DNA of 64,000 nt from a virus (taxonomy: Duplodnaviria; Heunggongvirae; Uroviricota; Caudoviricetes): IMG/VR virus record IMGVR_UViG_2541047715_000004; one strand, 5' to 3'. Below are positions 3,137 to 49,746 of this stretch, in pieces (positions within the stretch are counted from its first letter, which is position 1; the number at the start of each line of letters is the position of its first letter). Under the pieces are notes generated by a model, which did not search any database, had not been told where the DNA came from, and saw only the letters and a program-made list of their open reading frames with translations. A program made the translations under genes and the position numbers.

Positions 3137-3967
3137 ATGAAGAAAGGTTTACTTGCAGTTGCTCTGGCGGCTATTTGCACAATGGGTCTTACTGGCTGTG
3201 ATCGCGTGGAGCCTGGATACGTTGGCATCAAAGTAAACAAATTAGGTGAAGACAAAGGGATTGGTGAAGTGGTTGGCGTTGGTCGCCAATGGACAGGTCT
3301 TAACACCGAACTTTACGTATTCCCGACCTTCAAACAAATGAAGACCTACGACGAGCCGTTCACATTCCAGATGAGTGACGGTACTGCTATTGGTCACAAA
3401 ATTGGCGTTGCGTATCTGGTTAATCGTGACAAGGTAACGACGGTGTTCCAGACCTATCGCAAAGGCGTAGACGATATCACCGAATCAGATCTGCGTCAGA
3501 AAATTGCCGACTCTCTAAACCGTTTGGCCAGCCGTATGACCACTGACTCATTTATCGACGGTGGTAAGGCACAATTGCTGGACAACGCACTGAAAGATAT
3601 TCAGAAAGAGATGTCTCCGGTTGGTATTGAGGTACTGAGCCTGTCATGGGTTGGAAAGCCTGATTACCCAAAAACTGTCATTGAATCTATTAACGCCAAA
3701 GTAACGGCTAACCAGCGTACTCTGCAACGTCAGCAGGAAGTTGAACAACGTAAAGCTGAGGCGAATATGCTACGTGAACAGGCTAATGGTGAAGCTGATG
3801 CTATCCGTGCTCGTGCGCAAGCAGAAGCAGACGCCATTCGTCTGCGCGGTGAAGCTCTGCGTCAAAACCCGAACGTTATGGAACTGGAAGCCATCAATAA
3901 ATGGAATGGCCAGTTACCGCAGTACATGACTCAAGGGGCTAACACTCCTTTCATTACAGTGAAATAA
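3137..3967 (+). CDS. SPFH/band-7 domain lipoprotein
   Basis: Signal peptide with lipobox LTGC; central region and C-terminal coiled-coil (EADAIRARAQAEADAIRLRGEA) typical of SPFH family. Confidence 0.65.
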   Translation: MKKGLLAVALAAICTMGLTGCDRVEPGYVGIKVNKLGEDKGIGEVVGVGRQWTGLNTELYVFPTFKQMKTYDEPFTFQMSDGTAIGHKIGVAYLVNRDKVTTVFQTYRKGVDDITESDLRQKIADSLNRLASRMTTDSFIDGGKAQLLDNALKDIQKEMSPVGIEVLSLSWVGKPDYPKTVIESINAKVTANQRTLQRQQEVEQRKAEANMLREQANGEADAIRARAQAEADAIRLRGEALRQNPNVMELEAINKWNGQLPQYMTQGANTPFITVK

Positions 3968-4058: not shown

Positions 4059-4484
4059 ATGGCAGCTATTAAGAAACTCTACGATGCCGCAAACGTGGCT
4101 CTGGATGTTATTGATGATGAAGTAGCAAAAGGCTTTCCTGAACCTGATTGGGCGCATCAGCTACGAAACGCTATCGCAGAAATGACCCCACCAGATCCAA
4201 CCCCCGACGAGACAGACTGGCAGCGATTCATCCGTATGTACGCTCAGGAAATAGGTCCAACGCCAACGGCAGAGCAGGCAATGCTGCTGAAATACTTCAA
4301 AGAGGCGGGAGAGGATTTACCAATTGATGACTCAGCATATTGGTTCCACTGCGCATGGCGTAAGTATGACGTGATATTCACACAAGGCATGGGAAGCAAA
4401 GATATGGTTGTGTGGCATCTACTCCATATAGACACAGCCGTTGACAGAGTTATTGAACAGTTTTTCCCTAAACAAGAAGATTGA
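4059..4484 (+). CDS. hypothetical protein
   Basis: 141-aa ORF preceded by GAAAACAATTTGTTT motif and RBS. Confidence 0.5.
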   Translation: MAAIKKLYDAANVALDVIDDEVAKGFPEPDWAHQLRNAIAEMTPPDPTPDETDWQRFIRMYAQEIGPTPTAEQAMLLKYFKEAGEDLPIDDSAYWFHCAWRKYDVIFTQGMGSKDMVVWHLLHIDTAVDRVIEQFFPKQED

Positions 4485-4539
4485 TCGCCTATTCATAACT
4501 AACAAAATAAGTAAACACTAACCACAAAAGGAAAAACAC

Positions 4540-4815
4540 ATGAGAGTTTTAGTTCGAATCGTTACCAGCACTGTCTATGACGTGTTTCCGCTTTTTATGG
4601 TCAAAGCCGATGGCCTTAACGACGAAGAAACTGACGCGCTGATCCAGCGTATTCTCGTTGAATATACAGGTCATGACGCTGATTCAGTGATGGTTGATGA
4701 TGATGGTGTTTGTTGGCATAACGGCAACTGTTGGTACGTAGAAGAGACTCAACAAATCAGTGATGAAGATGCCGAACATCTTGAGCGTATTTTAAGCATC
4801 AGCACTTTTGAGTGA
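4540..4815 (+). CDS. hypothetical protein
   Basis: 91-aa ORF with conserved AGGAAAAACACATG start context. Confidence 0.5.
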   Translation: MRVLVRIVTSTVYDVFPLFMVKADGLNDEETDALIQRILVEYTGHDADSVMVDDDGVCWHNGNCWYVEETQQISDEDAEHLERILSISTFE

Positions 4816-5030
4816 GTTTACAGTAAAATTTATATAAGTTAGTATCTACCTATCATGAAGATTTTTATTGAATACTTGTTACTCATCGTTTCAATAGCTT
4901 TTGTCATCGACTGCATTTTCACTGGTGTCATTCGTAAAGTCTTTTCCCCGGTGCACGACGTAGTCATAAACGCTTTGGCTATCGTGCTCGTATTTAATTC
5001 AGCATTTGATGTAATCAAAGAGGTGGCAGC

Positions 5031-5366
5031 ATGAAGGCCATCCCATTCGCGCTGTTGTTCCTTTCTTCGATCGTTGTGGCCGACACCACTGTTTATCAGT
5101 GTGAAATGTCTGTAGCCGACGTTAAGAATGGCGCTCTTACCGACGTCATAAAAGCACCATATGGAGCGATGGTCGTAGACAGCGGCGACCAGTTCTATGT
5201 TGTGCGTGACGATCGAGTGTTGTCATCCCCATATCTCACAAATCGTAATGGCAAATTAACCGGCGTCGGAGAAGACCACTTCGTATACAACAAATACAAG
5301 GGCTTCTATGGCGTTCACGCTTCTCAGCAAAGCTACCTTTTCGATGACTGCAAGGAGGTTGGATAA
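5031..5366 (+). CDS. hypothetical secreted protein
   Basis: N-terminal signal-peptide-like segment MKAIPFALLFLSSIVVA. Confidence 0.45.
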   Translation: MKAIPFALLFLSSIVVADTTVYQCEMSVADVKNGALTDVIKAPYGAMVVDSGDQFYVVRDDRVLSSPYLTNRNGKLTGVGEDHFVYNKYKGFYGVHASQQSYLFDDCKEVG

Positions 5367-5578
5367 TGGCATTAACACTGGCAGGTCTGGAAATCGAGAA
5401 AACAAGCGGATACTGGCGTGCTAAGGGTTTCAAGCAGCCTGGCATTCTTGAGCGTCTGGAACGTGAAGATGGGTATATCGTCCACCAGCGGCGTGAATGG
5501 CGTATGTACGATCCAGAAACAGGAAAACTGACTACAAAAGCCGGAACACTTTGGGGTCTGTTGAAGAAAATACACTAA
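5366..5578 (+). CDS. hypothetical protein
   Basis: 70-aa ORF, start overlaps upstream stop. Confidence 0.4.
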   Translation: MALTLAGLEIEKTSGYWRAKGFKQPGILERLEREDGYIVHQRREWRMYDPETGKLTTKAGTLWGLLKKIH

Positions 5579-5625
5579 ATGCAAACTGACTGCGGCACGT
5601 TCCGCAGTCATATTTCATAGTCGTC

Positions 5626-6158
5626 ACCGCTGACAGCATACACAATCAACTGCCGCTGATAGCATATCGAGAGTCTATCTCACCGCTCACAGCATACTTT
5701 ACTCGATTTTTTACCGCTGACAGCATACTTAAGACATTGCATGAATAATGTGTACCGGTATGGGTATAACCAGAACAAAATTACCGCTGGCAGCATACGA
5801 AGGTCTGACATATGCCATTAATTACCGCTGATAGCATATCCAAACAAAAATTCCTCAATAAAACACCGCTGACAGCATACGTTCTATCAGGGAGCAGCAG
5901 GCAATAAATACCTTTCACTACAAGTAATCAGCGCAATGGGAATAGAATGTTAGTGAGCGCAAACCTATATGGAATGCACTCTTCGAGGTTAGTAACCACT
6001 GGGGAGGTATAAAAGAGCATTGAGTGGTGATAGATGATTTACCGCTCACAGCATACGTTTATCTCACTATACCGCTGGTAGCATATCTTTAACCGTTCAC
6101 AGCATACTTTTCAGAAAAATAGCCGCTGATAGCATACATTTCACCGCTGACAGCATAT
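5626..6158. repeat. iteron array (about 12 copies of ACCGCTGACAGCATAC-like 16-mer) downstream of rep
   Basis: Copies starting near 5626, 5653, 5682, 5713, 5783, 5824, 5865, 6041, 6071, 6092, 6122, 6143. Confidence 0.85.
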
Positions 6159-7252
6159 CAAAGCAGTTTGAGACTATTGGAAAGGATCTCAATCATCTTG
6201 ATATTTTCAGGCGTCAAATTCTGCGAAAGTTCGGTTATCTTATTGATAATGTTCTGTTTGGCATCAATTTCCCCGGCTTTCTCATCTGGTTTTTTGGGTT
6301 CGATGTCTTCAGGTTTTGGCGGTGCGACTTTGAGTTTTGGATTGCGGCTGTGAATCTGGATATAGATCGACCGCCCACGCTTAATCTCGCTGTATTCGAG
6401 ATAGCCCAAATCTTGGAGAGCTTTTAAGCCGTTACGTATAGTCTGATTCTGCGAGCTGACATTCCTGCTACTCAAATTGAGTCGCGCACGCAATCGAGCA
6501 AGCGATACCGGCGCAGGCTTGGTTGGAAGACTTTCGATGAAGGTGTACAGAGCCTGTGCTGTTTCTTTGCGTGGTAGCTTATTGATAACCTTTAACTGCA
6601 AAAGAACCTTATGGTCAAAGCGATATAGTTCGGCCAGCTTCGGTTCTGCATAGAACACCACCGTATCTTTCTGCTCGTTGTAGTCCACGCTATTGATGAG
6701 GTGCACCATCAGAAGCGAGATCTTGTTAGAGCCGTCGACGTTCTTTTCTTCATACGTTCTCTGGAAAGACAGAGTTGTACGCATGATCTTCAAAAGACTG
6801 TTTGTAAGCCGGTCGCGGAGTGTTTTGCGGATCTGTGACGATGGATAGCCACAAAACTTCGCAAATTTCGTGATGCTTAACTCGACACGACCATTAGGTT
6901 CGCCGTATTCTGCCAGCGAACGCACAACGCCCACCCACGTTTTGAAATCATGATCCATGTCCAGGCGAGGACCGGTTATCTTGATATCGGAATAGCCTTC
7001 AGAACGGGCTACTTCGAGCTGGACAAGCTCCTTTGAAGCATCGATCTCATTTGGCTTGTTACGTTTACTGTATTTTGTTCCCTTAAGCGTGGGGACGAAC
7101 AACCCCAGTCGCATCAACGCAATTGGTTGGACTGTATTGTTGCTATTAGGGACAAGTTCCCCTGTGTACAATTCAAGGGAACCTTCTTCAAAGTTGTCGA
7201 TGTTATCTTCTACTTCTTTGTTATTTTTACCTTTTTTATTTTTTGTGGACAT
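6158..7252 (-). CDS. repA: iteron-binding plasmid replication initiator (RepA-like)
   Basis: Flanked on both sides by iterons; start taken at internal Met (MSTKNKK...) because the first 40 codons of the listed ORF are just translated iterons. Confidence 0.65.
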   Translation of the reverse strand: MSTKNKKGKNNKEVEDNIDNFEEGSLELYTGELVPNSNNTVQPIALMRLGLFVPTLKGTKYSKRNKPNEIDASKELVQLEVARSEGYSDIKITGPRLDMDHDFKTWVGVVRSLAEYGEPNGRVELSITKFAKFCGYPSSQIRKTLRDRLTNSLLKIMRTTLSFQRTYEEKNVDGSNKISLLMVHLINSVDYNEQKDTVVFYAEPKLAELYRFDHKVLLQLKVINKLPRKETAQALYTFIESLPTKPAPVSLARLRARLNLSSRNVSSQNQTIRNGLKALQDLGYLEYSEIKRGRSIYIQIHSRNPKLKVAPPKPEDIEPKKPDEKAGEIDAKQNIINKITELSQNLTPENIKMIEILSNSLKLL

Positions 7253-7272
7253 GTGGACACCTTTGTCATTCA

Positions 7273-7374
7273 ACCGCTGACAGCATACTTGATTTGCCGC
7301 TGACAGAATACTAAAAACAGTTGGCAGCATACGGTGAACCGCTGACAGACTATCAATTACCGCTGACAGCATAC
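7273..7374. repeat. iteron array upstream of rep (4-5 copies)
   Basis: ACCGCTGACAGCATAC at 7273 and 7359, variants at 7296, 7338, partial at 7321. Confidence 0.8.
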
Positions 7375-7409
7375 ATGAACATGACTTCAGACCAGTCGTG
7401 GCGCGGCTT

Positions 7410-7495
7410 ACAGCGATCGGGGATCTTATTTGATCTATATAAGGATCTATCTATGGATCTCTTTATTAGGATCTATCCTGTGGATATGTGAATAA
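7410..7495. promoter_or_regulatory. putative plasmid origin core: GATC cluster plus DnaA box
   Basis: Six GATC sites within 7415-7473; TGTGGATAT (reverse complement ATATCCACA, one mismatch to TTATCCACA) at 7480-7488; AT-rich. Confidence 0.55.
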
Positions 7496-7573
7496 TTAAA
7501 ACAGGCATTTACTACCTTCGGCGCACCTGGTGGGTTATCGTTGCCTCGGCTAACAATCACAGAAAAATGACAT

Positions 7574-8218
7574 ATGGATCTAAAACGCACGCGCTGGGTT
7601 CGTCGTCTTGAAGACGGCTCCTACACTATCGAATCAAATTCCAACCTGAATAAGCAGAAGTTGCTTTGTGACATCTGCGGTATAGCGGCGAAGTGCCCGA
7701 TCTACGAAACCAGAATTAAACTTGATAAGGCTGGTGTGAATTTTCATTTAAACAGTTGCATCAGGTACGTTCCATTACTCGCATTTCGTAAACCGATCAT
7801 CGGATTGGATGCTCCCTACTTCAACACACTCCGTTCAGGTGTGACGTGGCGAGATCGTTTATCACCAGACAAGCTGATTTGCCTCGTATCCGCAGACACA
7901 GGGAAAATCATCCGTTTTGGGAAAGTAGACAAGGTTTACTCAGGCCCAGTAGACGAAATGTTGCGGAAACACAGCCGGTTTAATCATCTCTGTATGGGTG
8001 GTGAGAAAATCGAGAAAGTAGAAGAAGTGATCCGCAAATCCTACGGACACTTTCTGACCAAAGATAGCCTGCTCACCGCAATCTACATCAGACATGTAAA
8101 ACGTGAGTTCGACCTCGAATACCACAGCGAAGAAGAGCTTAACCTTGTTGACCCACGTCCAAAAGCTGGCGTCATAAGCATAAACGCAGCGCGTAAAAAG
8201 CCCACTGACGCGCTGTAA
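7574..8218 (+). CDS. hypothetical protein
   Basis: 214-aa ORF next to origin region. Confidence 0.45.
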   Translation: MDLKRTRWVRRLEDGSYTIESNSNLNKQKLLCDICGIAAKCPIYETRIKLDKAGVNFHLNSCIRYVPLLAFRKPIIGLDAPYFNTLRSGVTWRDRLSPDKLICLVSADTGKIIRFGKVDKVYSGPVDEMLRKHSRFNHLCMGGEKIEKVEEVIRKSYGHFLTKDSLLTAIYIRHVKREFDLEYHSEEELNLVDPRPKAGVISINAARKKPTDAL

Positions 8219-8472: not shown

Positions 8473-9558
8473 ATGACTTTGCCATACGGCGTCATTTCTG
8501 ACTGCCACTACCACAAATGGGATGCGTTCTCCACGACGAACGCTGAGGGGCTTAACTCCAGACTTGAAATACAGTTGGAAGCAACGAAAGAAGCAGCCAT
8601 CGCCATGAAGAAGGCCGGTTGTAAGTACATGTTGGTTGCCGGTGATACATTTCACGTCCGAGGAACTGTGTCCCCTTCTGTTTTGCATTACGTAACTGAA
8701 ACGTACAAGTGGATTATCAACGAGCTTGATCTGACAGTAGTAATGCTGGCCGGTAATCACGATCTTGAAACCAACGATTCAGTATATAGCGCCAACGCAG
8801 CAGCATCGCTGAGTTCTATCGGCGTGGTAATCGTATGTGGCAAGCGCCCACACTCAATAAAAATTGGTGATGTGACTGTCCACCTGATTAGCTGGCGTAA
8901 CAATCATGCGGAGCTTATCAGCGATCTGAAAGCATTACGTAAGAGCGTAGAAGGTGATAATCATGACGTTGTTATCCATACATCCATTAACAAAGCCATT
9001 CCAACAATGCCTGACGTCGGTATCGATGCGCAGGAGTTAAAGGATATCGGCTTTCGTCTCGTGCTTAGTGGGCATTACCACAACCACAAAGAGGTCATTC
9101 CTGGAGTTATCAGTGTCGGTGCACTGACTCATCAAAATTGGGGAGATGTTGGATCTCTGGCTGGCTACATGATCGTAAACCCGGACGGCAGTTTCAGTCA
9201 CTACGAAACCAGTGCGCCTAAATTCATTAACCTGGAAGATGATGTTGCTGATGACCAAATTCGCGGCAACTACGTGCGTTTCCGCGCCGTAATTGAGAAC
9301 GATGAAGAAGGCATTAAGTACCAGAACATCCTCAAAACAATGGGTGCAAAAGGTGTCGTGTGCAACTTCATCCGTAAGTCATCAATGATGGAAGGGACAG
9401 CCAGCACAACTGAAACCAGCAAAATCGATAGCCTGGGAGAGTCGGTATCTGCTTATTGCAAGATTGTCCACGATACTGACGGCGGATTTGATCTGAGCAA
9501 ATTGGATATTTTGTGTCAGGAAATCCTCACCGAAGCGGAGAGTTCGGAGGCTGTGTGA
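8473..9558 (+). CDS. SbcD/Mre11-like calcineurin-fold nuclease
   Basis: Phosphoesterase motifs VAGDTFHV, LAGNHDLE, SGHYH; followed by Rad50-like ATPase. Confidence 0.7.
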   Translation: MTLPYGVISDCHYHKWDAFSTTNAEGLNSRLEIQLEATKEAAIAMKKAGCKYMLVAGDTFHVRGTVSPSVLHYVTETYKWIINELDLTVVMLAGNHDLETNDSVYSANAAASLSSIGVVIVCGKRPHSIKIGDVTVHLISWRNNHAELISDLKALRKSVEGDNHDVVIHTSINKAIPTMPDVGIDAQELKDIGFRLVLSGHYHNHKEVIPGVISVGALTHQNWGDVGSLAGYMIVNPDGSFSHYETSAPKFINLEDDVADDQIRGNYVRFRAVIENDEEGIKYQNILKTMGAKGVVCNFIRKSSMMEGTASTTETSKIDSLGESVSAYCKIVHDTDGGFDLSKLDILCQEILTEAESSEAV

Positions 9559-9791
9559 AGCAAAGTCGTTATGGGAGCTTTCGAGACTTTGCCATCACGA
9601 TGAAAAGACTTGAACGAGGCCAGACGGTGATGTTTCACAAGCCCTACCCGCCACAAGGAAATCCCGTAGCGTTTTATCTTGGAAGGTTAACAAGAAAAGG
9701 CGTATTGAGGCGCAGATCCTTCCCGGCGCATACGGAGTTCAGATTGAAAGAAGGCCAAAAGCTAACACACGGTATCAGAGGTGTTATATGA
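9513..9791 (+). CDS. small basic ORF bridging nuclease and ATPase genes (uncertain)
   Basis: 92-aa ORF overlapping both neighbours. Confidence 0.2.
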   Translation: MSGNPHRSGEFGGCVKQSRYGSFRDFAITMKRLERGQTVMFHKPYPPQGNPVAFYLGRLTRKGVLRRRSFPAHTEFRLKEGQKLTHGIRGVI

Positions 9792-11704
9792 AGTTTTTAA
9801 AGCTCCAGGTTGAGAATTTTATGGCTATCGCCAGCGCGGAGGTCGAGTTAGATCAGCGTGGTTTAGTGCTTATTCAGGGTGTTAATAGTGATGATAGTTC
9901 CGCATCAAGTAATGGCTCAGGAAAGTCAACTCTAATGAATAGCCTGATGTGGTGTCTTTATGGCGAAACAGCTCATGGTGTGAAGGGTGACGATGTGTTG
10001 TCTACCGACCATGAAAAGAACTGTCGTGTTGCAGTAACCATCGAGGATGAAGGCAAGAGATACGCAATCATTCGTCACCGTAAACACAAAGAGTTCAAAA
10101 ATCGTCTTATCGTTCGTGGTGAAGATGGCGATATGACGAAAGGCAAAGATGCGCTGACGCAGGAGTTCGTCGAGCGTCTGATCGGTGCATCTAAAGAGGT
10201 TTTCATGGCTTCCATCTATGCGAGCCAAGAAGCTATGCCAGATTTACCTGGAATGTCCGACAAAAACCTCAAAACCATCGTAGAAGAAGCCGCTGGCGTT
10301 GACAGACTGACACGCGCCTACGCTATTGCTCGTGAGCGAGCTAATGCAGCTGCCGCACGTATGGATGTGGTTAAAACCAAATTGGAGTCGACAATCTCGA
10401 CCATTGAGGCAACACAGTCAGAAATTGAGTCAGCGAAAGCCTCCTCTGAATCATGGGAGCAAGAGCGTTCTAAACGTTATGACGATGCCCTGGCTGGGCT
10501 GGCCAGTGCCGAAGTTGAGTTAACGGAAGTTGAACTTGAGATCCGCACTCTTCCCGAACAGATACGTGATACCGAGAAGGCAATCGAAAGTGAGCGCAAA
10601 AAGTTAGCCTCAAAAGAAGAACATGACGCCAAGTTGCTCAAAGTTCGTGGTGCGATAACTGATATTCGGGCAAGCATCAAAGCTACAGAAAATAGTCAGG
10701 CTGATGCAATGAGCCGCGCGCGCAATTTTAAGACCAAAGCAGAAGAGGTTGGTACTAAAGTAGGATCACCATGCCCTACTTGTGGCAAAGCCTACTGCGA
10801 AGAAGATCTATCAACGGTGAAGGAGAATTTCATTGAACAAGCACGTCAGGAAATTGGTCAGGCGAAGACACTTGCAGAGGCAATGGCTAAACACAAAACG
10901 AATCTTGAGAAAGCGTTAAGCATTGAGTCTGCCCTTGTTAAAACGACACCTGATGTAACGGCTATCATTGCCCGGATTGAAGAGCTTACGAAACAACTCT
11001 CATCTTTGCGTCATCGTGAGAAGGAGGTTGTTGCTATTGAGTCTCTTGTGACTCGTGCTCGTACTGAGGTCGATCGTATATCAAAAGAGATTAATCCGTT
11101 TATTGCTCTTATCGCCAGACACGAAGATAACTTGGTATCCAGTAAGTCTACCTTCAAGTCCTTAAAAGATGAGTTGAAGGCTATTCAGGAACAAACGTTG
11201 CTATTGGAAAAAGCTCGTCAGGTCTACTCTCCTGCCGGGGTGCGTTCTCATATTTTGACGTCTGTTACGCCTTTCCTGAATACACGCACTGCCGAGTATC
11301 TCAATACGTTGTCTGACGGGAATATTACTGCTGAGTGGTCGACGATGGATGTCACTAAAAAAGGTGAGTATCGCGACAAATTCAACATTAGTGTGCAGAA
11401 GAAAGGTTCAAGTAAGTCGTTCCAGACCCTCTCTGGTGGTGAGAAGCGGAAGGTTCGCATTGCGTGTTCTTTGGCATTGCAGGATCTGGTTAGTAACCGG
11501 GCGAGTAAAAACATCGATTTGTTTATCGGCGACGAAATTGACGATGCACTCGATACAGCCGGTCTTGAACGCCTCATGGGTATTCTGGAGTCCAAAGCTC
11601 GCGAGCGAGGTACTGTGCTGATTATCTCCCATAAAGAGATGAAGTCATGGTTCCGGGAAACTATTACGCTGGAAGTTAAAGAGGGGCGCAGCTATGTCGT
11701 TTAA
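9788..11704 (+). CDS. SbcC/Rad50-like SMC ATPase
   Basis: N-terminal Walker A GSGKST, central coiled coil with CPTCG zinc-hook-like motif, C-terminal LSGGEKRK signature and DEID Walker B. Confidence 0.8.
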   Translation: MKFLKLQVENFMAIASAEVELDQRGLVLIQGVNSDDSSASSNGSGKSTLMNSLMWCLYGETAHGVKGDDVLSTDHEKNCRVAVTIEDEGKRYAIIRHRKHKEFKNRLIVRGEDGDMTKGKDALTQEFVERLIGASKEVFMASIYASQEAMPDLPGMSDKNLKTIVEEAAGVDRLTRAYAIARERANAAAARMDVVKTKLESTISTIEATQSEIESAKASSESWEQERSKRYDDALAGLASAEVELTEVELEIRTLPEQIRDTEKAIESERKKLASKEEHDAKLLKVRGAITDIRASIKATENSQADAMSRARNFKTKAEEVGTKVGSPCPTCGKAYCEEDLSTVKENFIEQARQEIGQAKTLAEAMAKHKTNLEKALSIESALVKTTPDVTAIIARIEELTKQLSSLRHREKEVVAIESLVTRARTEVDRISKEINPFIALIARHEDNLVSSKSTFKSLKDELKAIQEQTLLLEKARQVYSPAGVRSHILTSVTPFLNTRTAEYLNTLSDGNITAEWSTMDVTKKGEYRDKFNISVQKKGSSKSFQTLSGGEKRKVRIACSLALQDLVSNRASKNIDLFIGDEIDDALDTAGLERLMGILESKARERGTVLIISHKEMKSWFRETITLEVKEGRSYVV

Positions 11705-13089: not shown

Positions 13090-15405
13090 ATGATAAGCAT
13101 CGTAAAACGTAACGGCCAAACAGAGCCGTTATCCGAAGAAAAATACAACCGCGTCGTAATGTATGGCGTAGAAGGCATTCGTGGTGTAAGCGCATCCGCT
13201 GTAGCAATGGGAGCTGCGGCCAGCATTTTTGATGGGATTACCACCAGCCAGTTGCATGAGGCTTTGGTTAAATCTGCCGCTGATTTGATCTCACCAGAAG
13301 CACCAAATTACTCACAGGTGGCTGCCCGCCTGAACATTTTTAAAATCCGCAAAGATGCCTTCGGTCGTTACGACTATCCGAACTTCTACCAACACATTGT
13401 CAAGAACGTTAACAAGGGCGTTTATGACAAGGATTTGCTGACACATTATTCGTTTGAAGAGATCGAAGAACTCGGCAATTACATTAAGCCGAAACGTGAC
13501 GATCTTTTTGGCTATGCAGCTACGGTGCAGTTGCAAAGCAAATACCTCGTTCAAAACCGTGTTACTGGTGAGATTCACGAAGGCCCGCAACATATCTATA
13601 TGCTGGTGGGCATGTGTCTGTTCCAGAATTGGGAAGACGACTGCGCGGGCAAAACACGTATGGAGATGGTCAAAGGTTTCTATGACGTTACAAGTACGTT
13701 CAAACTGTCTCTGCCCACACCAATCATGGCTGGCGTCCGTACTCCAACCCGTCAGTTCTCCAGTTGTGTGCTGATTGAGTCTGGCGATAGTCTGAAAGGG
13801 ATTAGTGCAGCTTCAGCCGCAATTATCGACTACGTTTCACGTCGTGCTGGAATTGGTATTGGTTTTGGCCGTATCCGTGCGCTGGGCAGTGAGATCCGCA
13901 ATGGTGAAGCCACCCATACCGGAGTTATTCCATTCCTGAAGCATTTCCAGACTGCTGTTAAATCTTGCTCGCAAGGTGGTGTTCGTGGTGGCGCAGCAAC
14001 AGCGTTTTACCCGATCTGGCATCTTGAAGTTGAAAGTCTGCTGGTGGTGAAAAATAACCGTGGTATTGATGAAAACCGCGTTCGCCATCTTGATTACGGC
14101 GTCATGAGTAACCGTCTAATGTACCGTCGACTCGTCAGAAGCGAGAACATCACTCTGTTCAGCCCGCATGATGTGCCTGATATGTACGAAGCCTTCTTCA
14201 CAGACCAGGATCTGTTTGAAAAGCTGTACCATAAATACGAAGCCGATGATTCAATTCGCAAGAAGTCAGTACCTGCCATTGAGCTGTTCTCATCTCTGAT
14301 GCAGGAACGAGCGTCCACGGGCCGAATTTATATTGCGAACGTCGATCATATTAATGAGCATGGCGCTTTCATTCCTGCTCTTGCACCTGTCCGCCAGTCA
14401 AACCTGTGCATGGAGATCACTCTACCCACTCGTCCACTGGCATTTACCGACGACCCGAACGGTGAGATCGCGCTATGCACTTTATCCGCTTTTAACCTCG
14501 GAGCCATCCGTTCACTGGAGTCTCTTAAAGAGGTGGCGTTCTATGCCGTTGCTGCACTGGATTCGTTACTGGATTATCAAGACTATCCGATGGAGGCAGC
14601 CGAAGTGCCTGCCAAAGCTCGTCGTAGCTTGGGAATTGGTGTAACCAACTTTGCTTATTACCTGGCAAAGAATGGCGTTCGTTATTCTGATACCGCTGGC
14701 AATAAACTGGTGCATGAAACGTTCGAAGCTATCCAGTATTACCTTCTTGATGCCAGCTGCCGACTTGCTGAAGCAAAAGGTGAGTGTGACTGGTTTGAGC
14801 AGACCAAGTACGCAATTGGTCAGTTGCCGATCGACCATTACCGTTCTTCATTAGACGAAAGTGGCGAAACCAACTTTGAGTTAAAGATGCCGTGGGAAGA
14901 ACTGCGTGAACGTATTGCAAAATACGGCCTTCGCAACTCCACACTGACGGCACAAATGCCATGCGAGACTTCCAGCCAGATCACTAATTCCACCAACGGC
15001 ATCGAACCGCCTCGTGGCCCGGTGTCGGTGAAATCTTCTAAGGACGGCATCGTTAAGATGGTCGTGCCTGAGTTTGAAAAACTGAAGGAACAGTATGAAT
15101 ACCTGTGGGATATGCCGGACAACCGCGGCTATCTGACAAAGGTGGCGATCATCCAGAAGTTCTTTGACCAGGCTATTTCAGCCAATACCAACTATGACCC
15201 TTCTCGCTTTGAAGGCGATAAAGTCCCAATGATGACGCTACTGTCAGATTTGCTTCTCGCCTACAAGATGGGAGTTAAAACGCTTTACTACCACAACACC
15301 AGAGATGGGGCAGGAAAGCGTGATGACGACGAACCGCAGAATCCACTGACGCAAGCTGTAGCCGTCGAGCCAGAAGATGAGTGCGACGGAGCCTGCAAAA
15401 TCTGA
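13090..15405 (+). CDS. nrdA: ribonucleotide reductase class Ia large subunit
   Basis: Collinear with E. coli NrdA along its length, e.g. TPTRQFSSCVLIE, CSQGGVRGGAAT, NLCMEI, C-terminal CDGACKI. Confidence 0.92.
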   Translation: MISIVKRNGQTEPLSEEKYNRVVMYGVEGIRGVSASAVAMGAAASIFDGITTSQLHEALVKSAADLISPEAPNYSQVAARLNIFKIRKDAFGRYDYPNFYQHIVKNVNKGVYDKDLLTHYSFEEIEELGNYIKPKRDDLFGYAATVQLQSKYLVQNRVTGEIHEGPQHIYMLVGMCLFQNWEDDCAGKTRMEMVKGFYDVTSTFKLSLPTPIMAGVRTPTRQFSSCVLIESGDSLKGISAASAAIIDYVSRRAGIGIGFGRIRALGSEIRNGEATHTGVIPFLKHFQTAVKSCSQGGVRGGAATAFYPIWHLEVESLLVVKNNRGIDENRVRHLDYGVMSNRLMYRRLVRSENITLFSPHDVPDMYEAFFTDQDLFEKLYHKYEADDSIRKKSVPAIELFSSLMQERASTGRIYIANVDHINEHGAFIPALAPVRQSNLCMEITLPTRPLAFTDDPNGEIALCTLSAFNLGAIRSLESLKEVAFYAVAALDSLLDYQDYPMEAAEVPAKARRSLGIGVTNFAYYLAKNGVRYSDTAGNKLVHETFEAIQYYLLDASCRLAEAKGECDWFEQTKYAIGQLPIDHYRSSLDESGETNFELKMPWEELRERIAKYGLRNSTLTAQMPCETSSQITNSTNGIEPPRGPVSVKSSKDGIVKMVVPEFEKLKEQYEYLWDMPDNRGYLTKVAIIQKFFDQAISANTNYDPSRFEGDKVPMMTLLSDLLLAYKMGVKTLYYHNTRDGAGKRDDDEPQNPLTQAVAVEPEDECDGACKI

Positions 15406-15410
15406 CATAT

Positions 15411-15442
15411 GGTGGGGGATATCCCCACCTTCTCTTTGATTT
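15411..15442 (+). terminator. rho-independent terminator
   Basis: Hairpin ggtggggg-atat-ccccacc followed by T-rich run. Confidence 0.5.
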
Positions 15443-15511
15443 GTAAGCCTTGTTTAAACACATAAGATAACAACTTGTTTAAACGCACCAAAAAAGAAAA
15501 AGGAAAAACAC

Positions 15512-16654
15512 ATGTCATATTCAACGTTCCGTTTGGGTGCTAATGATGCAACCAAAGAGCCTATGTTCCTCGGACAATCTGTCAACGTGGCACGTTACGA
15601 TCAGCAAAAATACCGTGATTTTGAAAAGTTGATTGAACGTCAATTGTCTTTCTTCTGGCGGCCGGAAGAAGTTGATATTTCGAGTGATCGTATCGACTTC
15701 AACACGAAGCTGCGGGACCACGAACGTCACATTTTTCTGAGCAATCTCCGTTATCAAACGTTACTCGATTCAGTTCAGGGACGTAGCCCAAATGCAACGC
15801 TTCTGCCGCTTATCTCTATTCCTGAACTGGAAACGTGGGTTGAAACATGGTCTTTCTCTGAGACTATCCATAGCCGCAGCTACACCCACATTATTCGTGG
15901 CATGGTGGACGATCCGAGTATTGTTTTTGACGGTATTGTTACGGATGAAGAAATCATCAACCGAGCGATCAGTATCTCTGCTGAATATGACAGGCTTTAT
16001 GGGATGACCTGCGAGCGCCAGTCGTTAGGTGAGAAAGAGTTTGAACGTCTGTACGTAAATGAATATGGCTGGGAGCCATACCCTTTGCACCGTCAGCTTT
16101 TCCGCACGTTGGTGTCCATTAATGCGCTTGAGGCGATCCGTTTCTATGTAAGTTTTGCATGTACGTTTGCCTTTGGCGAACGGAAGTTGCTTGAGGGTAA
16201 CACCAAAATTATGCGCTTTATTGCCCGTGATGAAGCTCTGCATTGCGAAGGAACTGAACGCATGATCCGCTTCATGCGTACCGGTCGCGAAGGCTTATTG
16301 TGGAAAGAGATTGCTGCTGATGAAGAAAACGTCATTTACGACACCATGAAATCAGTCGCCGAACAAGAAATGAACTGGGCAGACTATCTCTTCAAAGACG
16401 GTTCGATGATTGGTTTAAACGCGGATATTCTGAAGACCTATGTAAAATACCGCACCAATCTGGCTATGAATCGTCTTGGCCTGAAGGCTTTATTTCCAGA
16501 AGTTACCACAGATCCGCTGGTCTGGATGAACAAGTGGTTGTTAACCGACACACTGCAAATTGCACCACAAGAGGCAGAGCAAAGCACATATCTGGTAGGT
16601 CAGATCGATTCTACCGTGGATAAGGCTTCTCTAAGCCAGTTTGCAGACCTGTAA
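15512..16654 (+). CDS. nrdB: ribonucleotide reductase class Ia small subunit
   Basis: Strong similarity to E. coli NrdB ([43 protein letters not shown]). Confidence 0.92.
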
Positions 16655-16731
16655 ACCGATACAAAGCATTATGTGGCCTGGCAACGCTGGGCCACAATGG
16701 ATCACAAGAATTAAGAAGGAACAAAACTAGT

Positions 16732-17601
16732 ATGAACTTTACCAAACTGACTGACCACCTGAAACTTGCCACCGATCGACTCATTGGATTTAAGCCAGAA
16801 CCATATGAGTTGCATGAAGGCCATGGTGTAGCCACTGAAAGTATTTACAAGATGGTCGATCAGTTTCATGAACTCTTCCAGCATCCGAGACGCGTTATGC
16901 CGACACCAGAGCTGCTTCGTCTCCGTGCAAGCCTGATTCATGAAGAAGCTGTAGTGGAAGGTATTCCAGCCGCAATGAATGGGGATATTGAGCAACTGCT
17001 GGATGCAATGGCCGACTTTTTATACGTTGGTGTTGGTACGATGGTCGCCATCAAAGGTGGTATTTCTACCGGCATGACCTATTACACGCAGGAACAGAGC
17101 ATTGATCGCTTTATGCAGACAATTTTTGTGCCCGGTAACACTGTTTTCGATGATATGGCAATGCCATTTCAGGAAGCTCGTGAGGCGTCATGTATGCTCG
17201 AAGAGCTGGCAGATAAACTTGAGAACAAGACTGTTAAGGATTCTGAGCTGATTCAGGAACTGCGCCGTGTCATGAACAAAATCTATGTGGCGTGCATGAT
17301 GACCTATCGACTGGCTGATTTCCTCGGTATCAATGTAGTCGAGCTGGTTGGCGAAATTCATCGGTCTAACATGACAAAATTATGGCCTGCTGATGTAGAG
17401 GAACGTCGCCAGGCTGTGGCCAACTGCAAATACGACTCTTCAGACCTGGGATTTCGCCATGCTGATGGTACCGATAAGATGATCGGTTTTCGAATTTCCG
17501 ATGGAAAGATTCTGAAGTCTCCAACCTATAGTGATGTCGATTTATCCTCCTTTGTTGAGCAAGCTAAAGCCTCAGCAATGTACGGAATGATCAAAAAATA
17601 A
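16732..17601 (+). CDS. putative MazG-like all-alpha NTP pyrophosphohydrolase
   Basis: Two EExxE...D-like acidic helix motifs (LIHEEAVVEG...DIEQLLDAMAD; QEAREASCMLEELADKLE). Confidence 0.35.
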   Translation: MNFTKLTDHLKLATDRLIGFKPEPYELHEGHGVATESIYKMVDQFHELFQHPRRVMPTPELLRLRASLIHEEAVVEGIPAAMNGDIEQLLDAMADFLYVGVGTMVAIKGGISTGMTYYTQEQSIDRFMQTIFVPGNTVFDDMAMPFQEAREASCMLEELADKLENKTVKDSELIQELRRVMNKIYVACMMTYRLADFLGINVVELVGEIHRSNMTKLWPADVEERRQAVANCKYDSSDLGFRHADGTDKMIGFRISDGKILKSPTYSDVDLSSFVEQAKASAMYGMIKK

Positions 17602-17669
17602 TTGTAGGTAGTTATCTATCTGTGTATATTTAACATGCGTAATAAAACTCTGGAATGACTATTCGTTTT

Positions 17670-17696
17670 GGTGGCCTATGGCCACCATTTTTTTAT
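17670..17696 (+). terminator. rho-independent terminator
   Basis: Hairpin ggtggcc-tat-ggccacc followed by TTTTTTT. Confidence 0.65.
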
Positions 17697-17771
17697 CTGT
17701 CTGGTCTTGTTCTCTCAATGAATGTAAACTCACACGATGAATAAGTAATTACTTATATTTGTGAGGTTTTT

Positions 17772-18875
17772 GTGTCACTCCTTTTGAATCGAGAGCATAC
17801 GAACGGTCAGGTAACAAACGCATCGTATGCAAAAGTTATTGAGACGGTGCTTAAAAGCGGCGTGCAGGCTGATGATCGCACAGGCACTGGTACTTTAAGC
17901 ACCTGCTACGTTCCCTCTTACTACATGCTTACTGGTGGGACTGTGCCGCTTATTTCTGGAAAGGCGGTAAATCTTAAGCCACTACTTGTCGAACTTGAGT
18001 GGTATCTGAAAGGCACGGGCAACATCCAATTTCTCAAGGATAACGGCGTTAAGATTTGGGATGCATGGGCCGATGAGAATGGCGATTTGGGGCCGGTTTA
18101 CGGTAAGCAGTGGCGTCGATGGGAAGATACCCGCATCGTGAGCCATAGTGAATATCTGAGCAAGATCGCTACTTTCCGTGAACGCGGGTACAAAGTCGAG
18201 GGATACCTGGGTATCAGTGAAGATCGCGTAGTGCTGTCCCGTGAAATCGATCAGCTACAGCGTATTGTCGATACACTGCGCACGAACCCTACCGATCGTC
18301 GCATCATGCTTAACGCATGGAACGTAGGCGAGCTTGAGGATATGAAACTGCCACCTTGCCACTTTGTCTTCTCTTTGTGGAGTCGTGAGCTGGATTTTGA
18401 AACCCGTTTAACGATGGCAACTGACATTGGTCTTCAACACAGTCGCCTCGGTTACGAGTCTATCTACACCAAGATGCTATACGATCTGGAGATGGACGGC
18501 AGTGTTACTGAAGCTGAACTGGATGAACTTGGAATCCCCAAACGCATCCTCAACTCCTGCCTCGTACAGCGTAGCGTAGACACTTTTGTTGGTATGCCAT
18601 TCAATATTGCTGGCTATGGCATTCTCACTCATTTTCTCGCGAAGATTACGGGTCACATGGCCGGTGCATTTGTGCATTTTGGCTTTGACGTGCATTTGTA
18701 CAACAACCACATGGAAGGTGTGTGTGAGCTAATGAAACGACAGGCTCCAGAGCATTCAGATCCGGTCGTTATTTTCCCTCATGAATGGTCAGAGTTGGAT
18801 GATTTCAAATGGGACGAGGTTTTAATTCTTGGCTATGACCCTCTACCGTGGATCAAGGTTCCAGTGGCGGTGTGA
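17772..18875 (+). CDS. thyA: thymidylate synthase homolog (ThyA fold, long variant, GTG start)
   Basis: ThyA motifs DRTGTGT, LxELxWYLKG, IWDAWA, GPVYGKQWRRW, PPCHFVF, QRSVDTFVGMPFNIAGY; about 60 extra residues between the PPCH and QRS motifs. Confidence 0.75.
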   Translation: MSLLLNREHTNGQVTNASYAKVIETVLKSGVQADDRTGTGTLSTCYVPSYYMLTGGTVPLISGKAVNLKPLLVELEWYLKGTGNIQFLKDNGVKIWDAWADENGDLGPVYGKQWRRWEDTRIVSHSEYLSKIATFRERGYKVEGYLGISEDRVVLSREIDQLQRIVDTLRTNPTDRRIMLNAWNVGELEDMKLPPCHFVFSLWSRELDFETRLTMATDIGLQHSRLGYESIYTKMLYDLEMDGSVTEAELDELGIPKRILNSCLVQRSVDTFVGMPFNIAGYGILTHFLAKITGHMAGAFVHFGFDVHLYNNHMEGVCELMKRQAPEHSDPVVIFPHEWSELDDFKWDEVLILGYDPLPWIKVPVAV

Positions 18876-22608: not shown

Positions 22609-23202
22609 ATGATTGCAGCCGAAAAAATCAAACAGCGAAAGCGCGACAACTCTCTTCGTGACCTCTGGAGAACACCTGACTGGCTGTTTTCTGCCATTCA
22701 ACGTTATCTTGGAGTGACATTTGATGTTGACGTTGCCTGCAACAAGGACAATGCGAAGCTGCCTAATTTCATAGGCGTTGAGCGTGATGCTTTGAAATCT
22801 GAATGGGGACAGCCAGGTACAATTGCCTTCCTCAATCCACCCTACTCCAAAATCTCCCCCTGGATTGATGCGGCTATACGTGAGCAGGCTCGCGGAGTTA
22901 CAACAGTGATGCTAATTCCTCAATCCCTCGATACAAAGTGGTATGAGCGTGCAACAGAGTGTGCGAATGAGACGATTATTCTGTCTGGTGGCCGCGTAGC
23001 GTTTGTCGAGCCTGACGTCAATTTGGGTCAGGTAGAAGTAAACATCAACCCCGGTGGCAGTATGCTCGTTGTTTTTCGAGGATTCTGTCAGGACGCTGGG
23101 CACTCTATAAGCAAGATCCCTTTGGACGTCATGAAAAGTCTGGGAGGGTATGATCCTGCGAATGTGATCAGGAAAAAAAGACAATCAAAGAAGGCTGCTT
23201 AG
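22609..23202 (+). CDS. phage-type DNA N6-adenine methyltransferase (Dam-like, NPPY family)
   Basis: LWRTPDWLF near N-terminus and FLNPPYS catalytic motif. Confidence 0.65.
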   Translation: MIAAEKIKQRKRDNSLRDLWRTPDWLFSAIQRYLGVTFDVDVACNKDNAKLPNFIGVERDALKSEWGQPGTIAFLNPPYSKISPWIDAAIREQARGVTTVMLIPQSLDTKWYERATECANETIILSGGRVAFVEPDVNLGQVEVNINPGGSMLVVFRGFCQDAGHSISKIPLDVMKSLGGYDPANVIRKKRQSKKAA

Positions 23203-23619: not shown

Positions 23620-24205
23620 TAGATAAGTACAAACTATTCATAAAGTGAATTGTAAGTGCTAAGATCTGATAGTTTCCAGTCGTAGACTGGAGGCTCGACC
23701 TGATGGGTGGGGGTAAGCGTCACTGGCGTCAGGTTTAAAAAAGCTCACTACCAGCGTAGAACCGGCACCGTTTAGGGGTTGGGGAAGGGGGAACCAAAGT
23801 GAGCAGAGACAAGGGTCACTTTATGATTGTCGAGTCTGGGGTGTTTCGAGAGGTTGAATCCAGTACTCCCCTTCATAAAGTGTGGGAAGATCTCGGTTCT
23901 GGGGTGCTGTCATCCATAACTTCCCAAGCCTAAGCTGGCAGTAGACTTAGGTCATAACTTTTCAGGTTATGAAACGACCAGGTTGGTGAGGAAATTTTGT
24001 ACTCACCTCCCTGGGAGAGTATTACCTGAAAAGACAACCTCTCACTTCGTTCGAGGTGAACTTCACTCACTTCGTTCGTTCAGTTCAGGTTTATAAAAAC
24101 CTGTTCTGGGAAGTAATTTGTTTATTTTAATAATTATTAACACGCACGCGTGTGCGCACGCGCGAGGAAAAAAAAATCGGCGCGGCGCTTGATTCAGGAG
24201 TTTAT

Positions 24206-24796
24206 ATGACGACGAAGACACCAGCCCGATCGCAAGCAAAAACTCGCAAAAATGACAAAAACAAAAATTCTCCCCGCACCAATTCCACAACGCCTGTCGT
24301 AGAGTTCAATCCCCAGCTTAAAACCGTGAAAATCTTCAGTGATGGCTCTTGCCTTAAAAATCCGGGTGGCCCGGGCGGTTACGGTATAGTTCTCCAGTAT
24401 GGTGGTGAGGAACGCGAGTTCTCAGATGGTTTTCATAGCACCACCAATAACCGCATGGAGATGATGGGGGCACTTATCGGGCTGGAGCGTTTGAAATATC
24501 CATGCAACGTTATTTTGTACTCTGATAGCCAGTATCTGAAAAACGGCATGACACAGTGGATGAAATGGTGGAAACGCAATGGATGGATGACTTCTGACAA
24601 AAAACCGGTAAAGAATGTTGATCTGTGGAAGCGTCTGGATGAGGCCGCAAGTCGACATAATGTTCGCTGGAAGTGGGTTAAAGGTCACGCCGGGCATCGT
24701 GAAAATGAAATATGTGATCGACTCGCGAAGATCGCAGCTTTTTCAGCAGCAGATATGCCTCACAAGAAAGATATTGGTTTTGTTTATAACAAGTAG
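24206..24796 (+). CDS. rnhA: ribonuclease HI with N-terminal basic extension
   Basis: Core [21 protein letters not shown]...NNRMEMM...SDSQYL...[19 protein letters not shown] parallels E. coli RnhA; start taken at ATG 24206 with AGGAG RBS. Confidence 0.85.
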
Positions 24797-31600: not shown

Positions 31601-31731
31601 AGATCCTGAATCAGTTCACGTTCCAGGTCCGATTCGCTCTGGTAGCTGTCGCCTGTTTGCTCGGCTTTGATGTACTTATCAAGAACGATAAAGTTATTGG
31701 ATTCAGCAATGGTGTGTGTCTGATGAGTCAT
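28615..31731 (-). CDS. hsdR: type I restriction enzyme R subunit (type IC, EcoR124-like)
   Basis: 1038 aa; N-terminus [22 protein letters not shown] matches my recollection of EcoR124I HsdR; helicase motifs [16 protein letters not shown]. Confidence 0.9.
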
Positions 31732-31852
31732 AGCGCATCCTTTGTGCCGTCTGGCAAGGGCCGGAAGGGCTTTAAGGGCGACTTCCGGCGTGTAAAAAAT
31801 AGTCTCTATATAGACCGGATGTTAAGGTGATCCGGTCGGTAGCAATGGTCAA

Positions 31853-35762: not shown

Positions 35763-35788
35763 AGGCGGTGCAATGCACCGCCTTTTAT
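35763..35788. terminator. bidirectional terminator hairpin
   Basis: Hairpin aggcggtgc-aat-gcaccgcct with T-run, between convergent umuD-like and mrp genes. Confidence 0.55.
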
Positions 35789-36888: not shown

Positions 36889-37045
36889 CCCGTCTCCTTT
36901 ATTTTAATTTGCGCAATTGTCGCCTTGTAGTGTACTCCAGCTACGACATTTAATCATTTATGAGAAATGCTGTTATCACATGGCAGACATAAGGCCATTT
37001 TGTTACTATCAAGCCCCTTTTCACTACAAAGAAGTAATGCCTACT

Positions 37046-49664: not shown

Positions 49665-49746
49665 AAACCTCTTTCCTTAGTGCCTTTTGTATGTTATTTG
49701 GCTATTATAATAAGTAAGTGATTACTTAGTGGATTGTAGCAATAAA

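Follow-up and report, generated by a model that had tools for sequence, protein, structure and literature searches.

The replication region described here occupies positions 5626–7495 of a 64-kb stretch of viral DNA (64,000 nucleotides, hereafter the window). Its central gene is repA (6158–7252, minus strand), coding for a replication initiator of 364 residues plus a stop codon. Copies of a 16-bp iteron, ACCGCTGACAGCATAY (GTATGCTGTCAGCGGT in its sense-strand form), lie on both sides of this gene, with 12 copies 3′ of repA (5626–6158) and five upstream (7273–7374). A scan of the whole 64 kb with the pattern ACCGCTGACAGCATAC, allowing up to three mismatches, gave 18 matches versus 0.35 expected, a number reached by none of 100 shuffles, and 17 of the 18 fall within 5626–7374, every one on the plus strand. 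The iteron numbers proposed in the sequence-only reading, about 12 downstream and four to five upstream, thus became exactly 12 and five when mapped by pattern scan.

The downstream control iterons are direct repeats without exception (12/12) and are grouped in two clusters, both assigned to the minus strand. The distal, incA-like cluster (5626–5880) contains seven iterons (starts at 5626, 5652, 5682, 5713, 5783, 5824 and 5865), which are spaced by 26–70 bp and oriented in the same way as the origin iterons. The proximal cluster (6041–6158) contains five (starts at 6041, 6071, 6092, 6122 and 6143), with a spacing alternating between 30 and 21 bp, and base 6158 is common to its last iteron and to the repA stop codon. 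The two clusters are separated by an iteron-free spacer of 160 bp (5881–6040). The idea of a hidden element in this spacer was dropped, since no conservation was found there in the Klebsiella relative; it has no Rfam match either. An inverted iteron-like site inside repA (6903–6918) was likewise set aside as a chance occurrence, with four mismatches and no counterpart in the Klebsiella relative. The five origin (incC-like) iterons (7273–7374, minus strand; starts at 7273, 7296, 7317, 7338 and 7359) are spaced by 21–23 bp, which corresponds to two helical turns. Beyond the control array, a bidirectional hairpin (5587–5610; 9-bp stem with six G-C pairs, T-rich tail on the plus strand) forms the outer edge of the replicon, and is likely the terminator of the small convergent genes of unknown function found at 5031–5578.

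Upstream of the origin iterons, a GC-rich spacer (7376–7414, 44% A+T) leads to an A+T-rich block (7415–7473) with six GATC sites within 59 bp, consisting of five AGATC(C/A) heptamer-type repeats and one CGATCG. The six sites in about 60 bp noticed at first reading are thus confirmed, and this cluster is the only one of its kind in the window; at least six GATC in 60 bp were obtained in none of 300 first-order Markov simulations. The A+T content reaches 69% at 7415–7500, versus 54% for the whole window. This block, a homologue of the Dam-methylated repeats in P1 oriR, is presumed to be the region of DNA unwinding and SeqA sequestration. It is followed by two tandem DnaA boxes on the minus strand (7479–7495): TTATTCACA (7487–7495) is a perfect TTATNCACA, and ATATCCACA (7479–7487) matches at eight positions out of nine. 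Where the sequence-only reading had one DnaA box, there are thus two in tandem. DnaA boxes are not per se above chance (two found versus 2.66 expected); these two carry weight because of their position and of their alignment with the tandem DnaA site annotated in P1. A pair of weak, overlapping motifs resembling DnaA boxes, GTGTCCACA and ATGTCCACA (7244–7260, minus strand; 7/9 each), spans the repA start codon, where the Klebsiella relative has GTATCCACA and P1 has CTATCCACA. The GC-rich spacer also includes GCCGCGCCACGACTGG (sense strand, 7392–7407), which P1 and the Klebsiella relative have both kept. In a four-way alignment, the DnaA boxes, the GATC heptamers, the GCCGCGCCACG spacer and the proximal DnaA-like box are conserved, and the five iterons are in register.

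A promoter scan of the minus strand detected no canonical sigma-70 promoter for repA. A relaxed scan gave, as its best candidates, two sites in the iteron array (7356–7326 and 7338–7308) with a 19-nt spacer, neither of them conserved in the Klebsiella relative. The mapped repA promoter of P1 itself reaches just 8/12 in the identical scan. Going by P1, the repA promoter would be expected within the origin iterons (7273–7374).

The most likely repA start is the ATG at 7252, which gives the 364-residue product. An SD-like AAGGTG (7261–7266) lies just 5′ of it, with a three-base overlap with the first weak DnaA-like motif. The RefSeq call of 404 residues, starting from 7372, is probably too long, as it would run through the origin iterons. 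RepA matches the Pfam model Rep3_N over residues 118–239 (37.5 bits for a cut-off of 22.4, E = 3.9e-9), which is the WH1 model of the Rep_3 (PF01051) winged-helix iteron initiators such as RepE, pi and pPS10 RepA. It is 43.5% identical to P1 RepA over residues 32–309 (tblastn, E = 2e-64), 47.9% identical to SSU5 RepA and, over residues 24–309, about 50% identical to the RepFIB RepA of over 5,000 plasmid records. Fifty-six columns are invariant in an alignment of six RepA sequences. These comparisons place RepA in an initiator family, in agreement with the role initially given to it. The protein is a genuine P1 RepA homologue, and its core (residues ~30–310) is homologous to the P1, RepFIB and SSU5 proteins. 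The PHROG label “replication helicase” (phrog_775) was judged to be a mislabel. The core is followed by a C-terminal tail of about 55 residues (~310–364), found only in SSU5-type RepAs, in both of their lineages, and not in P1 or RepFIB; it consists of a Pro/Glu/Lys-rich linker and then two predicted helices. PDB sequence searches with RepA and with the six-sequence profile retrieved no related solved structure, and no NCBIfam model matches RepA. The single-sequence AlphaFold2 model (mean pLDDT 40, pTM 0.28) is too low in confidence to show the WH1–WH2 fold.

The same molecule carries a set of virion genes, coding for the terminase large subunit (53746–55002), the portal (55029–56603), the scaffold (56625–57512), the major head protein (57538–58413) and a major tail-like protein (62031–62813). 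Genes for a DnaB-like helicase (48105–49664) and a phage-type Dam (22609–23202) are also present, together with other DNA-metabolism genes (NrdAB, SbcCD, a UvsX-like protein and RNase H). No par operon adjoins the replicon, and the PHROG label “ParA-like” given to an ApbC homologue was judged erroneous. No RNA genes turned up when the 64-kb window was scanned in full with Rfam (at the gathering threshold) and for tRNAs.

The anatomy of the P1 plasmid (R) replicon, as annotated in GenBank (oriR/incC, repA, incA; IncY), provides an architectural reference. The order of the parts is the same, from tandem DnaA boxes through GATC heptamers, GC-rich spacer, five iterons and repA to the control array. 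P1 oriR aligns to 7392–7506 with 78% DNA identity (blastn, E = 4e-17), the five origin iterons, at ~21 bp, line up in register with those of P1 incC, and the iteron that opens the control array shares the final base of the stop codon, just as incA copy 9 does in P1. The proposal of a P1-like plasmid replicon is thus well supported by RepA homology, by part order and by origin identity, and the suggested comparison with P1 shows that its architecture is shared. The replicon architecture is ordinary, almost exactly that of the classic P1 plasmid replicon, and not a new kind of system.

Several differences from P1 are nevertheless observed. The P1 iteron, GATGTGTGCTGGAGGGAAA, is absent here; only the 5′ half is similar (GT[A/G]TGCTG), whereas the 3′ halves differ (TCAGCGGT versus GAGGGAAA). 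A different incompatibility group is therefore expected, and the replicon is not IncY. The 12 control iterons are all direct and form two clusters, whereas P1 has nine, three direct and six inverted, so that the handcuffing geometry may differ. There are six GATC sites instead of five, the leader is shorter, and RepA is extended at its N-terminus (~30 residues) and C-terminus (~55 residues). In P1, parA follows incA, whereas parAB is not adjacent here, and the virion genes form an SSU5-type module rather than the myovirus-type module of P1.

The replicon is nearer to RepFIB and SSU5 (48–51% identity) than to P1, and PlasmidFinder places it under “IncFIB” (PMC12838234). RepFIB replicons, for example pAA-09EL50 and IncFIB(K), have the same origin design, with TTATCCACA-TATCCA boxes and GATC repeats. 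In contrast, the pAA-09EL50 iteron is ACATAAACTGTAGTCAGTA, and RepFIB RepA is devoid of the C-terminal tail, coverage ending at residue ~309. Strain 2009EL-2050 harbours both replicons, which are thus evidently compatible. With SSU5, pHCM2 and pLF82 (Cyrano), of the SSU5 supergroup, the element has in common its phage backbone (PMC3999498), the genomic slot of the replicon and the flanking genes, which are collinear on either side at 73–77% DNA identity. The origin DnaA/GATC block is also shared, and the RepA tails are alike in length and character. However, the SSU5 RepA is merely 48% identical, and the SSU5 iteron, AACCACTGTAGAGAGTA, is unrelated in sequence, with mixed orientations downstream. 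The PlasmidFinder types also differ, being IncFIB(pLF82-PhagePlasmid) or IncFIB(pHCM2) for these elements and IncFIB(H89-PhagePlasmid) here (PMC12838234). Collinearity between SSU5 and the window holds at 4071–5576 and 7414–8208, but not across 5577–7413. Since collinearity is broken just there, the iterons and repA have diverged or been exchanged as one unit. This comparison points to a specificity cassette (repA and both iteron arrays, 5577–7413) that diverged or was swapped as a whole, the host-factor half of the origin being kept. Iteron sequence varies between lineages whose RepAs differ.

Among 5,426 complete E. coli genomes, 119 contain near-identical copies of the replicon (98–100% identity), with 183 occurrences on plasmids and none on chromosomes. 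The carrier plasmids range roughly from 100 to 156 kb, most of them being of about 110 kb, and repA is intact and 99–100% identical across more than 100 plasmids. The pSLy3-like E. coli phage-plasmids p09EL50, pECOH89 and PhiR41_1 are 98–100% identical over the whole region, with minor SNPs. The identity with p09EL50, a plasmid visible as a band of ~110 kb by PFGE (PMC3486847), is 99.1% over 2.1 kb, and MOB-suite recognizes on it a sole typed replicon, rep_cluster_488, which is the one studied here. The RepA of pECOH89 is identical to that of p09EL50 (PMC3999498). The plasmid of strain 48956 (110,850 bp), typed IncFIB(H89-PhagePlasmid) (PMC12838234), matches the replicon at 98.8%. From this near-identity to p09EL50/pECOH89 and to the strain 48956 plasmid, the replicon can be assigned to the IncFIB(H89-PhagePlasmid) type. 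Some members of the lineage carry blaCTX-M-15, as does pECOH89 (PMC3999498). The replicon of PhiR41_1, a deposited phage genome, is devoid of the first three distal iterons (5626–5712, 87 bp), which leaves a nine-copy array. The virion genes of the window, the near-identical replicons restricted to plasmids (in 119 genomes) and the PhiR41_1 phage genome all support the phage-plasmid lifestyle deduced at first from the sequence. A preprint on heteroresistance and phage-plasmid copy number (10.64898/2026.08.19.745698) was considered not relevant, as it deals with a different, IncFII/CopA-type element of 49 kb.

Altogether, the element is a common and already-known SSU5-supergroup phage-plasmid, with a P1/RepFIB-family replicon that has its own iteron specificity. 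The region 5626–7495 is very probably the plasmid-prophage replicon of this E. coli phage-plasmid, of the P1 RepA/RepFIB family, with iteron-controlled low-copy theta replication. As judged from its sequence, it should replicate autonomously, a prediction to which its exclusive occurrence on plasmids and the PFGE band of p09EL50 lend indirect support. The mechanistic scheme leans on established knowledge of P1 replication. RepA monomers would bind to the five origin iterons (7273–7374) and host DnaA to the tandem boxes (7479–7495), and possibly also to the weak boxes at the repA start. RepA and DnaA together would then open the A+T-rich GATC block (7415–7473), where the replisome would be loaded. 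By analogy with P1, the GATC sites would need Dam methylation and, after firing, the hemimethylated sites would be sequestered by SeqA, which would limit re-initiation. RepA sitting on the origin iterons would repress the repA promoter (autorepression), while the 12 downstream iterons (5626–6158) would act both by titrating RepA and by pairing with the origin (“handcuffing”); titration and handcuffing would keep the copy number low and set incompatibility. Dependence on DnaA, Dam and the DnaK/DnaJ chaperones is predicted on the same grounds.

Other explanations have to be considered for such an arrangement. The RepA/iteron origin could mainly serve lytic (vegetative) replication, like lambda O/ori, or be a single origin for both modes. 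The presence of the element's own DnaB-like helicase, NrdAB, SbcCD, UvsX-like protein and RNase H would fit with this role, as would the tail borne by SSU5-type RepAs and missing from those of plasmid RepFIB and P1, and no lytic replicon of the P1 RepL type was noticed among the scanned subset of ORFs. Nevertheless, lambda-type origins carry their iterons within the initiator gene, whereas here the control array lies outside it and is accompanied by tandem DnaA boxes and a GATC sequestration block, which is the design of a replicon under low-copy plasmid control. Moreover, RepA/oriR is the plasmid-mode origin in P1 and RepFIB, and the closest relatives of RepA are encoded by thousands of non-phage IncFIB plasmids, which makes a mainly lytic or dual origin improbable.

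It is still less probable that the replicon is an inactive relic, the element being maintained by another replicon beyond the window, even if the window covers just 64 kb of roughly 110 kb. The strong conservation of an intact repA and the integrity of all origin motifs argue against decay; p09EL50 is typed by MOB-suite through rep_cluster_488 alone, and such plasmids are typed by PlasmidFinder through repA alone (PMC12838234). As for the attL and attR labels given in GenBank MZ779062 (pJN2-26) to two 20-bp repeats around repA, which would make them sites of attachment or recombination for an integrated prophage, they deserve almost no credence. There are 17 copies rather than two, in two arrays with helical-turn spacing, located at the place of the RepA-binding iterons of P1; no integrase adjoins them, and in complete E. 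coli genomes each of the 183 occurrences is on a plasmid. The att-site interpretation is thus refuted by the copy number, the position and the genomic location of the repeats, and the repeats are best read as iterons of a plasmid-prophage replicon.

The RepA tail could have an added function, such as docking or regulating replication proteins encoded by the element itself, among them its DnaB-like helicase, although this is a speculative reading to which we give a low probability. If it were true, a single oriR could be used in plasmid mode as well as in lytic mode, and the number of iterons in the all-direct control array (12, or nine in PhiR41_1) would tune the switch or the copy number. More generally, the turnover of a specificity cassette within one conserved phage backbone fits with incompatibility-driven diversification. 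The base-level map, with its iteron consensus, the sizes of the arrays, the positions of the DnaA and GATC sites and a probable repA start, helps annotation and the building of mini-replicons, for a replicon expected to set the copy number, stability and incompatibility of a phage-plasmid lineage that about 2% of complete E. coli genomes contain.

The replicon at 5626-7495 is of a known type, IncFIB(H89-PhagePlasmid), which belongs to the P1 RepA/RepFIB family and is found in a known E. coli phage-plasmid group. The object is already catalogued, and its fine map is of use for annotation and is no discovery. RepA, encoded on the minus strand (6158-7252), scores 37.5 bits against Pfam Rep3_N (cut-off 22.4) and matches phrog_775 with an E value of 5e-133. 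It is 43.5% identical to P1 and P7 RepA (aa 32-309, E 2e-64), 47.9% to the RepA of SSU5 and Cyrano (aa 30-310), about 50% to the RepFIB RepA of more than 5,000 IncF plasmid records (aa 24-309), and 85-88% to Klebsiella phage-plasmid RepA over 96-100% of its length. The homologous core spans aa ~30-310, and this kinship with the P1, SSU5 and RepFIB initiators, together with the Rep3_N score, bears out the initiator role assigned to RepA by the sequence-only reading. The final ~55 residues consist of a linker rich in Pro, Glu and Lys and then a helical end, a tail seen in SSU5-type RepAs only and in none of the P1, RCS47 or RepFIB proteins compared.

The repA frame is also open from 7372, which gives 404 aa, and this is the start used by the RefSeq annotation of the near-identical plasmid p09EL50 (L001, 6659-7873). 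This start falls within the outermost origin iteron, and the reading passes through all five. The ATG at 7252, giving 364 aa, is favoured because a Shine-Dalgarno sequence (AAGGTG) lies five bases upstream, the Klebsiella homologue starts at this same position, the RepA N-termini of P1, SSU5 and RCS47 line up with it, the record of phage PhiR41_1 uses it, and many assemblies have been rotated so that their first base is exactly this one. A promoter scan could not pin one for repA; the mapped repA promoter of P1 reached just 8/12 in the identical scan.

The iteron ACCGCTGACAGCATA(C/T) occurs 17 times within 5626-7374, always on the plus strand, with a single extra weak match elsewhere in the 64 kb. 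Chance would give 0.35 matches in the window, and 18 were reached in none of 100 shuffles. Five origin (incC-like) iterons lie upstream of repA at 7273-7374, spaced by 23, 21, 21 and 21 bp. The twelve control (incA-like) iterons downstream of repA form a distal cluster of seven (5626-5880, 26-70 bp spacing) and a proximal cluster of five (6041-6158, alternating 30/21 bp spacing), separated by a repeat-free spacer of 160 bp; the counts had been put earlier at about 12 and 4-5. PhiR41_1 has nine control iterons, against twelve in the window: it lacks exactly 87 bp (5626-5712, three iterons), and the deletion endpoints are the perfect iterons at 5626 and 5713. This loss is an iteron-to-iteron deletion, and array size is therefore variable in nature. 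An inverted iteron-like sequence within the repA coding region (6903-6918, four mismatches to the consensus) is complementary at 14/15 positions to the iteron at 5783; the Klebsiella relative has no counterpart to it, and chance probably accounts for it.

Beyond the origin iterons, moving away from repA, comes a GC-rich stretch (7376-7414, 44% A+T), then a block of 69% A+T at 7415-7473 which holds six GATC sites, as had been noted before. Five are repeats of the AGATC(C/A) heptamer type. This cluster is unique in the window, and six sites per 60 bp were obtained in 0 of 300 Markov simulations. One DnaA box had been claimed; it is present, and the number is two, in tandem on the minus strand (TTATTCACA at 7487-7495 and ATATCCACA at 7479-7487). 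A DnaA box by itself is no more frequent in the window than by chance, and the meaning of these putative sites derives from their position and their homology to the P1 and RepFIB origins. Right beside them, and divergent from the origin, lies a conserved 214-aa gene (7574-8218, phrog_2105) with no Pfam match. SSU5, Cyrano and the Klebsiella relatives share it, next to the origin in each, and the Cyrano record names it an ASCH-domain protein.

The label of a P1-like plasmid replicon holds beyond RepA homology. In the GenBank annotation of P1, a DnaA site is followed by five Dam sites, then by five incC iterons that hold the repA promoter, by repA itself and by nine incA iterons; the last iteron overlaps the repA stop codon by one base, and parA and parB come next. 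The window has the identical order of replicon parts and the identical one-base overlap, and P1 oriR aligns with 7392-7506 at 78% DNA identity (blastn, E 4e-17). When the window is aligned with pJN2-26 of Klebsiella, P1 and the pAA-09EL50 RepFIB replicon, all four conserve TTATCCACA-TATCCAC, the GATC heptamers, GATCCCCGATCGCTG and GCCGCGCCACG, as well as five in-register iterons and a T(A/G)TCCACA box just ahead of the start codon. Judged from these alignments, the origin is homologous to that of P1 at the DNA level. The two differ in that the window has 12 control iterons, all direct, and P1 three direct and six inverted; in their GATC sites (six against five); in the leader, shorter in the window; and in the par genes, none of which adjoins the window replicon.

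The iteron itself is particular to each of the five lineages compared. On the repA sense strand, it reads GTATGCTGTCAGCGGT in the window and the Klebsiella relatives, GATGTGTGCTGGAGGGAAA in P1, AACCACTGTAGAGAGTA in SSU5, GTTGACTATACGCGA in RCS47 and ACATAAACTGTAGTCAGTA in the RepFIB replicon of pAA-09EL50; the 5' half GT(A/G)TGCTG is common to the window and P1. Window segments 4071-5576 (73%) and 7414-8208 (77%) are collinear with SSU5 DNA, whereas 5577-7413 aligns to it only as short patches within repA. What falls in this divergent segment is exactly the control array together with repA and the iterons of the origin, whose DnaA/GATC half sits in the conserved flank. From this collinearity pattern, 5577-7413 is a specificity cassette in a conserved slot. 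The break agrees with the literature: pECOH89 and pLF82 are almost 100% identical over 71 genes and only 48% in RepA (PMC3999498), and PlasmidFinder keeps IncFIB(H89-PhagePlasmid) and IncFIB(pLF82-PhagePlasmid) apart (PMC12838234). One strain holds both p09EL50 and a RepFIB plasmid with a different iteron, a co-residence which agrees indirectly with the control model given below and is expected if iteron specificity defines compatibility.

The phage-plasmid nature proposed from sequence is upheld by several lines. The window encodes virion genes (terminase large subunit, portal, scaffold, major head protein, Ig-domain structural protein, major tail-like protein), and the DNA-metabolism genes also announced are there: DnaB-like helicase, NrdAB, SbcCD, a UvsX-like protein, ThyA, RNase H and a phage-type Dam. 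By its gene content, the element brings along, besides the RepA origin, a large share of the genes for its own replication and recombination; DNA-metabolism loci lie at 502-2841, 8473-11704, 13090-18875, 24152-24796 and 48105-49664, and the UvsX/RecA-like protein has 779 aa. The 2.1-kb replicon region shares 99% identity with p09EL50 (from E. coli O104:H4 2009EL-2050) as well as with over 100 further plasmids of ~110 kb, and 99.6% with PhiR41_1, whose recorded host is MG1655. Of 5,426 complete E. coli genomes, 119 carry it; every one of its 183 places in them is on a plasmid, and no chromosome has it. p09EL50 is visible by PFGE as a ~110-kb plasmid band (PMC3486847), and such elements count among the phage-plasmids of the SSU5 supergroup (PMC7969092).

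Next to the replicon, no ParA/ParB partition operon of the classical kind was seen. Two ParB_N-domain proteins in succession (49729-50427 and 50394-51095), then an ABC-type ATPase (51092-51757), are encoded just ahead of the terminase region. At 35788-36888 on the minus strand lies an ApbC/Mrp iron-sulfur carrier homologue (NCBIfam NF008669, 759 bits), labelled 'ParA-like' in PHROGs. It diverges from metG (36917-39079, plus strand), a full gene for methionyl-tRNA synthetase; annotated copies of both genes are found on many E. coli plasmids of ~110 kb. A complete type I restriction-modification system occupies 28615-34659 on the minus strand (hsdR 28615-31731, hsdS 31853-33100, hsdM 33097-34659) and appears to be variable cargo; within the 12-kb hsd-metG stretch, Cyrano and PhiR41_1 match the metG side only (~35.3-39.5 kb).

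Other readings of this region have to be weighed. The record of pJN2-26 (MZ779062) labels two iterons flanking repA (2378-2397 and 3648-3667) 'phage attachment site attR/attL', which would make the repeats att sites. Their copy number, position and plasmid location exclude this, and the labels are almost certainly an artefact of a prophage-finder catching direct repeats. That the replicon is an inactive relic is unlikely in view of the intact, near-identical copies carried by over 100 plasmids, for which it is the only typed replicon. Both the low-copy control design of the RepA/iteron origin and its closest relatives, which are ordinary IncFIB plasmids, also make a mainly lytic role unlikely; a dual role, plasmid and lytic, linked to the SSU5-specific RepA tail, seems improbable as well.

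A functional plasmid replicon would most likely work as its P1 and RepFIB homologues do, the individual steps resting on established knowledge of P1. The five origin iterons would bind RepA monomers and the tandem boxes DnaA; together, RepA and DnaA would melt the adjoining A+T-rich GATC block, where the replisome would load. RepA on the origin iterons would also repress its own promoter, and the downstream array would titrate RepA and pair with the origin ('handcuffing'), leading to low copy number and incompatibility. The variable array size illustrated by PhiR41_1 is indirectly consistent with this replication-control model. Opening would need methylated GATC sites, hemimethylated ones being sequestered after firing. 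The element encodes a phage-type DNA adenine methyltransferase at 22609-23202 (Pfam PF05869 'Dam', E 2.4e-38), and this Dam of its own could bear on the methylation of the six origin GATC sites.
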